Part shown: piece by piece, positions 10,552 through 10,812 of the stretch
How positions within the stretch are numbered: the first letter of the stretch is position 1
Layout: every line of letters starts with the position of its first letter
Virus genome (UHGV): UHGV-1682877
Reading direction: 5' to 3' (one strand)
DNA length: 64,000 nucleotides
Source of the DNA: a virus
Notes under the pieces: model-generated
Databases searched by the model: none
Told to the model about the DNA's origin: nothing
Seen by the model: the letters and a program-made list of their open reading frames with translations, nothing else
Program-made: the position numbers and the translations under genes

Positions 10552-10812
10552 TTGATTTTATAAAAAAATTATGATATAATATTAATAGAAAATAAGAAAT
10601 ACAATATTTTCTATACTAACCAATCAAAATTACTTGAGAGATATTACTACCTAAACTTCACTCTTAAAAAGAAGGTTCATAGGTGAGGTTCACGGATGGG
10701 TCACAAGGCTACGGCTTAACCAAGAAGATAAAACGCCTTTCGCTGAAGAGCGAAACATAAATACTAAGGTTCAATGATTGGTGACTTCTAAAATCGAAAA
10801 AGAACCTTATAT

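Follow-up and report, generated by a model that had tools for sequence, protein, structure and literature searches.

We read the stretch between positions 10587 and 10812 of the phage DNA analysed here as the functional 5′ leader (5′ external transcribed spacer) of the phage's first tRNA operon, probably acting in cis, and give this reading a probability of about 0.5. The leader itself, about 225 nt between a promoter and the gene for tRNA-Ile(UAU) and on the same strand as the tRNA, is real, conserved and non-coding. The DNA analysed, referred to as the window, is a 64-kb stretch of an uncultured human gut phage of ~137 kb (IMG/VR contig IMGVR_UViG_3300045988_145614), near-identical contigs of which are present across many gut metagenomes. 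The window is A/T-rich, with a G+C content of 30.5%. Its 17 tRNA genes form two arrays and all lie on the plus strand, and among its protein products are topoisomerase II, a DnaE-type polymerase and a RecJ-like exonuclease. The phage DNA polymerase shares 38% identity with YorL from SPbeta-type Bacillus phages, the promoters are of the TTGACA-17-TATAAT type with a TG extension, and the ribosome-binding sites, as read, are strong AGGAG types. Since the nearest relative of the polymerase is the SPbeta-type YorL, and given this promoter type and these AGGAG sites, the host is probably a Bacillota bacterium. The layout of the leader and its immediate neighbours is as follows.

10243–10551: gene for a 102-aa protein of no assigned function, upstream of the promoter and without a Pfam or PHROG match
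10552–10580, plus strand: sigma-70-type early promoter, TTGATT-17-TATAAT with TG extension, motif score 10/12 with the TG
10586–10613, plus strand: hairpin at the predicted 5′ end of the transcript, TAGAAAATA, 10-nt loop, TATTTTCTA
10614–10653, plus strand: A/U-rich linker with 10 variable positions (10616, 10621, 10624–10626, 10629, 10643, 10646, 10647 and 10653), more variable than any other part of the leader
10654–10690, plus strand: candidate hairpin, AACTTCAC(T)CT / AG GTGAGGTT, pairing probability 0.57–0.70 in the full leader
10673–10692, plus strand: direct repeat AGGTTCA-N6-AGGTTCA, with a third copy at 10767–10773 and the inverse GAACCT at 10802–10807
10706–10717, plus strand: small predicted hairpin AGGC-UACG-GCUU, a UNCG-type tetraloop closed by C-G, pairing probability 0.24–0.58
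10737–10812, plus strand: 3′ third and most conserved block of the leader, 3 of 76 sites variable across all strains
10738–10755, plus strand: predicted hairpin TTTCGCT-GAAG-AGCGAAA, 7 bp with a GAAG loop
10765–10809, plus strand: predicted 3′ hairpin, TAAGGTTC ... GAACCTTA, with an inner stem 10778–10782 / 10793–10797
10813–10888, plus strand: tRNA-Ile(UAU), anticodon TAT, the first tRNA of the array (Rfam 64.8 bits), with a predicted RNase P cut at 10812/10813

A structured leader had been proposed for this region by a sequence-only reading. The leader part of that proposal held, as the region is non-coding, lies on the tRNA strand below a strongly conserved promoter, is followed by the first tRNA with no terminator on the plus strand, and is under sequence constraint, but no one specific fold emerged for it. 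The search of 10581–10812 for plus-strand terminator-like sites returned none, and on that strand no leader hairpin has a U-run after it. An attenuator or intrinsic terminator at 10738–10755 was considered and rejected, as the hairpin is followed by CATAAATAC and the T-run lies on the minus strand only. The position between promoter and first tRNA, the shared strand, the non-coding sequence, the missing terminator and an A/U-rich AUAU immediately before the 5′ end of tRNA-Ile are all features of the 5′ leaders of bacterial and phage tRNA operons. The boxA-like CACTCTTAAAAAG at 10659–10671, which resembles the boxA of lambda and of rrn operons, was set aside because A/T-rich matches of this kind are common here.

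The promoter, which the sequence-only reading had placed at about 10575, was borne out as a motif. It belongs to a repeated promoter family (D3) with members also at 11344 and 11607, and the promoter region has one variable site in 39 nt across strains. From the position of the −10 box, transcription would start at ~10587, so that the 10586–10613 hairpin starts at the predicted +1. This hairpin has a pairing probability of 0.83–0.91, and all 9 of its pairs are invariant among 13 variants. The upstream gene and the promoter are kept in two distant lineages, the P0002 group (L005–L014) and the P0008 group (L025), and the leaders of these lineages are non-homologous to that of the window; the sole leader segment that the L005 lineage keeps in the corresponding position is the 3′ arm of this hairpin, TATTTTCTATACT, whose partner is absent locally in that lineage. 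The complement of this arm, ATAGAAAATA, lies just after the −10 boxes of early promoters in each of the three lineages (window positions 342, 4283, 10585 and 40936; 1775 in L005; 4718 in L025), and in the window ATAGAAAATA and TATTTTCTATACT pair to make the +1 hairpin. By our reading of the L005 sequence, the transcript start there differs and pairs with a neighbouring segment instead. Also by our reading, the mRNAs of this phage family carry their ribosome-binding site immediately after ATAGAAAATAA, and the tRNA-operon leaders of the family (L025, L005) begin with a hairpin or stem that takes in the 5′ end. The established view for Bacillus is that a 5′ end which is not translated withstands 5′-end-dependent decay only with a terminal stem, and 5′-terminal stem-loop "stabilisers", with a role for RNase J1, are known from transcripts of Bacillus subtilis and of phage SP82. 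A 5′ stem on the untranslated tRNA leaders of this family fits that idea by analogy. The likeness, namely a predicted stem at or near +1 of an RNA that is not translated, in a phage whose host is probably a Bacillota bacterium, is positional only.

Sequence constraint was assessed among ~30 contigs of the same phage species, gathered via the upstream 102-aa protein, which carry 16 distinct leaders that are 93–100% identical to that of the window. Across all strains, 20 of the 226 leader sites are variable (8.8%), which is indistinguishable from five tRNAs (33/389, 8.5%; p = 0.88 against the leader) and from codon positions 1 and 2 (65/512, 12.7%; p = 0.17). Variability is much higher at third codon positions of neighbouring genes (67/256, 26%; p = 8e-7), in the spacer after tRNA-Ile (53/231, 23%; p = 4e-5) and in the next spacer (70/146, 48%; p = 1e-17), and a smaller strain set agreed with this result. 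The leader is thus under clear sequence constraint among strain-level relatives. The clearest case is the L192/L193 lineage, the most divergent among the strains: its identity to the window is 75–83% at third codon positions and ~90% in the two spacers, while the leader of L193 is 95.1% identical, with 76 of 76 positions shared in 10737–10812, and tRNA-Ile and tRNA-Leu(UAA) are both 100% identical. Within the L193 leader, identity climbs toward the tRNA, from 89.6% in the 5′ third (10587–10653) to 95.2% in the middle and 100% in the 3′ third.

Folding was compared with the hairpin and the long-range pairing that had been noticed in the sequence alone. The ttcgct/agcgaa hairpin is present at 10738–10755, has a pairing probability of ~0.68, is invariant in 16 of 16 variants and resembles a terminator on the minus strand only. 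The long-range pairing of aaggttcat with gaacctt did less well; both strings are there, at 10672–10680 and 10802–10808, but their pairing probability is 0.00–0.02. Because AGGTTCA is present three times, GAACCTT has three possible partners, and in the full-leader ensemble the second copy reaches 0.02–0.10 and the third 0.40–0.93. The local 3′ hairpin, pairing 10765–10772 with 10802–10809, is therefore likelier, as the ensemble favours the nearest AGGTTCA copy. This hairpin is part of the MFE fold, ends 3 nt before the tRNA, has a pairing probability of 0.40 in the full leader and 0.93 with the tRNA included, and changes among strains only at 10788, in the loop, and at 10796, where U-G becomes U-A. 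A long-range model from RNAalifold (10683–10691/10802–10810 plus 10698–10704/10781–10787) was rejected, with ensemble probabilities of 0.02–0.10 and 0.02–0.08 for its two helices and one pair of the closing helix broken by C10691A in L193.

Folding energies of the leader are modestly better than those of dinucleotide-shuffled sequences, with z of −1.9 for the whole leader, −1.1 for 10660–10812, about −2.2 for 10681–10812 and −2.55 for the 3′ hairpin (10764–10812); the minus strand folds worse than the plus strand relative to shuffles (z −0.65 to −1.9). In a model of local hairpins with 43 pairs, all pairs are standard in 13 of 13 variants. All four stem substitutions preserve pairing (A-U to G-U, C-G to U-G, G-U to A-U and U-G to U-A), for which a chance of ~0.09 (four of four transitions keeping the pair) was calculated from the pair types, and two of the four are wobbles that work only in plus-strand RNA. 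The covariation check that the sequence-only reading had proposed thus returned four one-sided, pair-keeping changes and 0 compensatory pairs in the 13 variants, which are too low in diversity to inform on covariation; the 16 strain-level variants likewise hold no compensatory pair. In the middle part, the MFE folds differ among natural variants. There, an AC>GT change in L004 keeps both affected pairs of the 10654–10690 hairpin as G-U wobbles, and the 13-nt deletion in L017 (10673–10685) takes away the loop of the same hairpin and some of its 3′ arm; the first AGGTTCA copy lies in that loop and the second in that arm. A G>A change in L004 turns a G-U pair of the 10706–10717 hairpin into A-U and its loop into UAUG. 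The hairpins at 10586–10613, 10738–10755 and 10706–10717 (cUACGg) are stable across variants. By these predictions both ends of the leader and the 10738 hairpin are likely to be real structures, and the terminal hairpins are the best-supported ones. A hairpin just upstream of every tRNA was also looked for as a general feature of the window and was not significant (p = 0.09).

To find relatives of the leader, several collections were searched. The Rfam scan that the sequence-only reading had suggested brought no family to light: Rfam 15 at gathering score reports only tRNAs in the window, and at E<=10 the leader has only noise (RT-9 at 16.5 bits and snoRNA models), with no match to an HDV-like or other ribozyme family. 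In GenBank phages, blastn matched only the tRNAs, and two protein-seeded and three exact-pattern scans of IMG/VR returned only the source contig. Scans of JGI metagenomes and GTDB genomes with the 18-mer GGTTCACGGATGGGTCAC found one further copy of the same phage (L045). The remaining 18-mer matches, whose number is about that expected by chance with ~1 Tb searched, were rejected as homologues because their flanks do not align; among them is a repeat element of a rumen Clostridiales MAG with tandem GGGTCACGG / GGTTCACGG units. When run against the window and the distant relatives, a covariance model of 10681–10812 (R1) picked up neither a paralogue in the former nor a homologue in the latter. 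Relatives of the upstream 102-aa protein cluster tightly at >=90% identity, with none of the others exceeding 58%, relatives at about 50% protein identity have non-homologous leaders, and no intermediate relatives suited to covariation analysis were found in IMG/VR, the JGI metagenomes or GTDB. By these searches, the leader belongs to no described RNA family and is seen in one phage species.

Taken as a functional 5′ leader, the region suggests the following course of events, in which the start site, co-transcription with the tRNAs and RNase P cleavage are predicted from sequence. Host RNA polymerase would start at ~10587 from the extended −10 early promoter, and the 9-bp hairpin at +1 of the untranslated transcript would probably shield its 5′ end from 5′-end-dependent decay, by analogy with the stabilisers of Bacillus subtilis. 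The variable A/U linker would follow, and then a G+C-richer middle part that may fold in competing ways. Two invariant hairpins would close the leader, the second stopping 3 nt before the tRNA. RNase P, which cleaves at the 5′ end of tRNAs, would cut at 10812/10813, and the excised leader would be a by-product capped by hairpins at both ends. Since 10737–10812 is conserved like the tRNAs, we take it to act in cis on the folding or stability of the precursor or on the 5′ processing of tRNA-Ile; the invariant 3′ block of two hairpins and AUAU may give the precursor a form that favours its stability or its cleavage by RNase P.

Among the alternatives, the least improbable, though still unlikely, is that the leader has no function of its own and that its low diversity reflects linkage to the conserved promoter and tRNA, a recent spread, or co-conversion as an endonuclease element homes into tRNA-Ile. 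In about half of the strains tRNA-Ile is interrupted, at a polymorphic site 36 nt downstream, by a ~490-bp insertion that includes a gene for a PDDEXK_5 endonuclease, and homing of endonuclease elements homogenises flanking sequence, so gene conversion around this site could partly lie behind the low diversity. The climb of conservation toward the tRNA, the lack of covariation and the distant relatives without the leader sequence also agree with a leader that does nothing. Co-conversion is unlikely to be the whole explanation, however, because the identical tract is asymmetric, running 85 nt into the leader but meeting its first difference 14 nt downstream of the tRNA, and because insertion-carrying strains have at least 4 leader haplotypes that differ at up to 11 or more sites; moreover, diversity in the leader is 3–5 times lower than in the adjacent spacers, which are similarly close to conserved genes. 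Rather unlikely, too, is that the leader is the gene for a stable small RNA with an RNase P-made 3′ end and hairpin-protected ends that acts in trans, and two routes are possible for such an RNA: pairing of its UAUUUUCUAUA element with the common 5′ start of the phage's early mRNAs, AUAGAAAAUA, to which it is complementary, or titration of an RNA-binding protein on the AGGUUCA repeats. In eukaryotes, 3′ ends of the MALAT1 type are made likewise, by cleavage at a downstream tRNA, and 3′ETS-leuZ and the stable RNAs of T4 are further precedents for spacer-derived RNAs. Hairpins at both ends, one at the predicted +1 and the other stopping 3 nt short of the cut site, would suit such an RNA, as would a 3′ third conserved as the tRNAs are, the retention of TATTTTCTATACT in place in the L005 lineage, which lacks a local partner for it, and the recurrence of ATAGAAAATA after the −10 boxes of other early promoters in the window (342, 4283, 40936), L005 and L025; functional RNAs derived from the spacers of tRNA operons have been described as well (PMC9514646). 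Against this, the complementarity is a weak, A/U-rich stretch of 11 nt that is sequestered in the 5′ hairpin here, no other complementarity to the window is longer than a 13-mer, the 13-mers lying within coding regions at about chance level, and AGGTTCA copies are lost in natural variants. Pfam and PHROG searches found no RNA-binding candidate among the neighbouring proteins. The more specific proposal, that this would be a phage small RNA of a kind not described before, one that times, for instance, the decay or translation of early mRNAs through pairing of UAUUUUCUAUA with AUAGAAAAUA, we regard as improbable; if true, a trans-acting RNA would couple tRNA supply to early-gene shut-off.

The AGGTTCA repeats raise the question of an element acting at the level of DNA, in which AGGTTCA-N6-AGGTTCA-N5-GGGTCA, with the further copy and the inverted copy, binds a regulator or roadblock protein; this we consider quite improbable. 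The copies start at 10673, 10686 and 10767, so that three of the 10 AGGTTCA sites in the 64 kb fall within 101 nt, with a chance probability of ~4e-4 to 4e-2 depending on the window correction, and their spacing is about one helical turn. The L017 deletion of 13 nt takes out exactly one repeat unit, as is typical of repeat slippage, and the unrelated rumen MAG element has tandem units of its own. An operator or iteron would be expected to keep a constant copy number and to be reused at other sites, but copies are lost or mutated in variants (in L193, copy 2 has changed from AGGTTCA to AGGTTAA), the motif is neither enriched nor reused elsewhere in the window, and the conserved block 10737–10812 has one direct and one inverted copy only. 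The 18-mer shared with the MAG element is no more than chance would give, and the wobble-type stem substitutions fit RNA over DNA. That the leader is the relic of a decayed tRNA or tRNA-like element is highly improbable, even though GGTTCA is the start of the T-loop consensus, 10698–10722 is complementary at 19 of 25 positions to the D-loop and anticodon arm of tRNA-Gln (13763–13787), and the array has other degenerate or tRNA-like pieces: Rfam gives no tRNA or tRNA-like match on either strand at E<=10, ARAGORN finds none, no GGTTCA copy is closed by a T-stem, and conservation equal to that of live tRNAs would be unexpected for a relic. As an antisense pairing, the complementarity to tRNA-Gln was judged to be chance, because it is interrupted and aimed at structured regions of the tRNA. 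Least probable by far is a small protein, for which the candidates are a 25-codon GTG ORF at 10683–10760, the only plus-strand ORF of >=20 aa in the leader, with a weak AGAAGG 7 nt before its start, and a 5-codon ATG ORF at 10775–10792 with AAGG 4 nt ahead of its start. L017 has lost the GTG and some of the ORF that follows it, L193 no longer has the AGAAGG, substitutions in the ORF are ~6 non-synonymous to 3 synonymous by our own reading of the variant columns, and the length is too short for a family match. Frameshift and loss of the start among natural variants, the loss of the RBS-like motif in L193 and the substitution pattern argue against coding potential of the leader, and the sequence-only reading was essentially right in seeing no RBS-supported ORF.

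Returning to the functional 5′ leader, comparison with known systems sets it somewhat apart. Typical bacterial tRNA leaders are much shorter than its ~225 nt, and, compared with those of bacterial and phage tRNA operons, its 3′ third is conserved as the tRNAs are, with RNase P processing predicted. The E. coli RNA 3′ETS-leuZ is a sponge RNA from a tRNA-operon spacer, and the T4 species 1 and 2 (rnaC / rnaD) are small, stable, non-tRNA RNAs co-transcribed with the tRNA cluster and located at its end, whereas the leader described here lies upstream and has no match in GenBank phages outside the tRNAs. In E. coli, Ile-tRF-5X is a functional 5′-ETS fragment of a tRNA operon, a very small RNA found beside tRNA-Ile (PMC9514646). 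The phage leader likewise adjoins tRNA-Ile and would yield a by-product of pre-tRNA processing that could persist, but it has no sequence similarity to Ile-tRF-5X or 3′ETS-leuZ and is far longer than Ile-tRF-5X. Theta ribozymes, which are minimal HDV-like ribozymes in the tRNA arrays of gut Caudoviricetes, are thought to aid the maturation of tRNA ends and lie directly downstream of tRNAs, where they cut the 3′ trailer (PMC10879173); the leader is upstream of its tRNA and matches no ribozyme family.

Phage tRNA arrays are usually annotated as tRNAs and junk spacers, and here one leader is as constant as the tRNAs, so that part of this "spacer" carries information. If that information concerns the stability of the precursor or the access of RNase P, this would reveal a way in which a phage adjusts the supply of tRNA to a Bacillota host; were the excised RNA a stable regulator instead, the small class of spacer-derived RNAs would gain a phage example. 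As the leader belongs to one phage species and its fold and expression are predictions, its practical value is limited, and it is offered as a candidate to groups with metatranscriptomes or a cultured host, together with related oddities in the same array. Several other unexplained elements lie in the surrounding tRNA arrays and, taken together with the leader, may outweigh the leader alone. Other degenerate or tRNA-like pieces were seen in the array that the leader opens. YrlA / Y RNA-like elements (RF02553) are tRNA-mimicking modules in phages that have no match in the leader, and a neighbouring spacer of the same array has a weak match to this family at 11489–11596 (26.6 bits, against a gathering score of 69).

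In about half of the strains, the anticodon loop of tRNA-Ile(UAU) is interrupted between nucleotides 36 and 37 by an insertion of ~490 bp, nearly all of which is occupied by an open-reading frame for a PDDEXK_5 endonuclease of 147 amino acids. A diverged homologue of this open-reading frame splits tRNA-Ser(GCU) between nucleotides 37 and 38 in contig L019, from about position 6035 onward, and the window homologues of both split tRNAs, at 10813-10888 and 13233-13326, are uninterrupted.

L004 (a contig of the same phage species) 5606-6096: insertion in tRNA-Ile(UAU), also present in L017, L021, L022, L023, L192, and L193, of which L192 and L193 represent a divergent lineage

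In the tRNA-Ile insertion, the sequence outside the open-reading frame is too short for a group I core, and the 3′ end of the insertion is not G. The ends of the insertion, TTACGTT and AACGTAA, lengthen the anticodon stem to an 11-bp helix, and the mini-precursor gave a folding z of -5.3. The insertion could be a tRNA intron of a type other than group I, or merely a homing element that disrupts the gene.

The tRNA arrays hold several other irregularities. The motif AGACAnAnACAGCAAT is repeated immediately after tRNA 3′ ends, with a single further copy in the second array's leader.

Window 11483, 12049, 13009, 13406, and 21851, and also 21189: motif AGACAnAnACAGCAAT, from repeat families D6 and D7 together with our own reading

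Window 12084-12174, which terminates in ACCAT immediately 5′ of tRNA-Met, gives a tRNA match below threshold (21.2 bits) and is probably a degenerate tRNA. At 13040-13112, ARAGORN called a tRNA whose anticodon loop has 8 nt and whose "anticodon", tgaa, has four bases, and this sequence scores 53 bits as a tRNA in Rfam; shortly 5′ of it, still within the array, is an open-reading frame for a GIY-YIG homing endonuclease (12359-13006). Upstream of tRNA-Gln, window 13619-13741 consists of three tandem repeats of 39-42 nt, each carrying promoter-like TTTACA / TTCTAT ... TATATT sequences plus the inverted repeat TATAG-N11-CTATA. The spacer 3′ of tRNA-Leu(UAG), at 11481-11606, shows a weak match to the Rfam YrlA (Y RNA-like) family, with 26.6 bits and E = 0.009 against a gathering score of 69. 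This spacer folds (z = -2.0) with a closing stem, TTAGACAG / CTGTCTAG, that encloses a hairpin resembling a T-arm, GCAGGTTCGATTCCTGT, as well as a stretch resembling a D-arm, and a comparable stem, TAGACAGTA...TACTGTCTA, surrounds tRNA-like pieces in the more distant lineage represented by L005.

All three phage lineages carry a hairpin, GTTTGYGGTC-loop-AAAACCRC, positioned 4-7 nt 5′ of a tRNA or of a sequence resembling one. The loops of this hairpin vary, and its stem shows a compensatory change from GCGG/CCGC to GTGG/CCAC.

Window 11090-11115: hairpin
L004 6334-6359 and 6615-6643: hairpin
L005 5481-5503: hairpin
L025 (a second distant lineage) 5176-5202: hairpin

No Rfam family covers this hairpin. 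The pattern is also present in unrelated IMG/VR contigs, where most of the 121 matches look like chance and four lie immediately 5′ of a tRNA; a recurring subtype, GTTTGCGGTCA(A/T)CC(C)TTAAAACCGC, was found in contigs with tRNA arrays or 5′ of ribosome-binding sites.

Long G+C-rich spacers lie within the second tRNA array.

Window 21492-21676: spacer, 185 nt
Window 22064-22438: spacer, 375 nt

Rfam searches at E ≤ 1 returned nothing in either spacer, and the 375-nt spacer folded no better than its shuffles (z = -0.4).

The early promoters of the phage family have in common an extended -10 box and, downstream of it, a constant transcript start, an arrangement kept between lineages at only about 50% protein identity.

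Window 342, 4283, 10585, and 40936; L005 1775; L025 4718: early promoters with the start ATAGAAAATAA(A/G)AAAGGAG

An 18-19-mer of the phage leader also occurs in a non-coding element conserved among rumen Clostridiales MAGs and metagenomes, a match that we judged to be chance. The element ends in tandem 11-nt units, GGGTCACGGAA / GGTTCACGGAT / GGGTCACGGGC, beyond which the flanks diverge, resembling the end of a mobile element.

L044, L046, L048, L051-L053, L055-L058, L060, L064, L065, and L071 (rumen sequences): occurrences of the Clostridiales element

Immediately 3′ of the first tRNA array, a 410-amino-acid open-reading frame (window 14388-15620) matched the Mtd N-terminal domain of Pfam weakly, at 21 bits and under the 26.3 cut-off, and also gave a weak match to a tail-spike PHROG.
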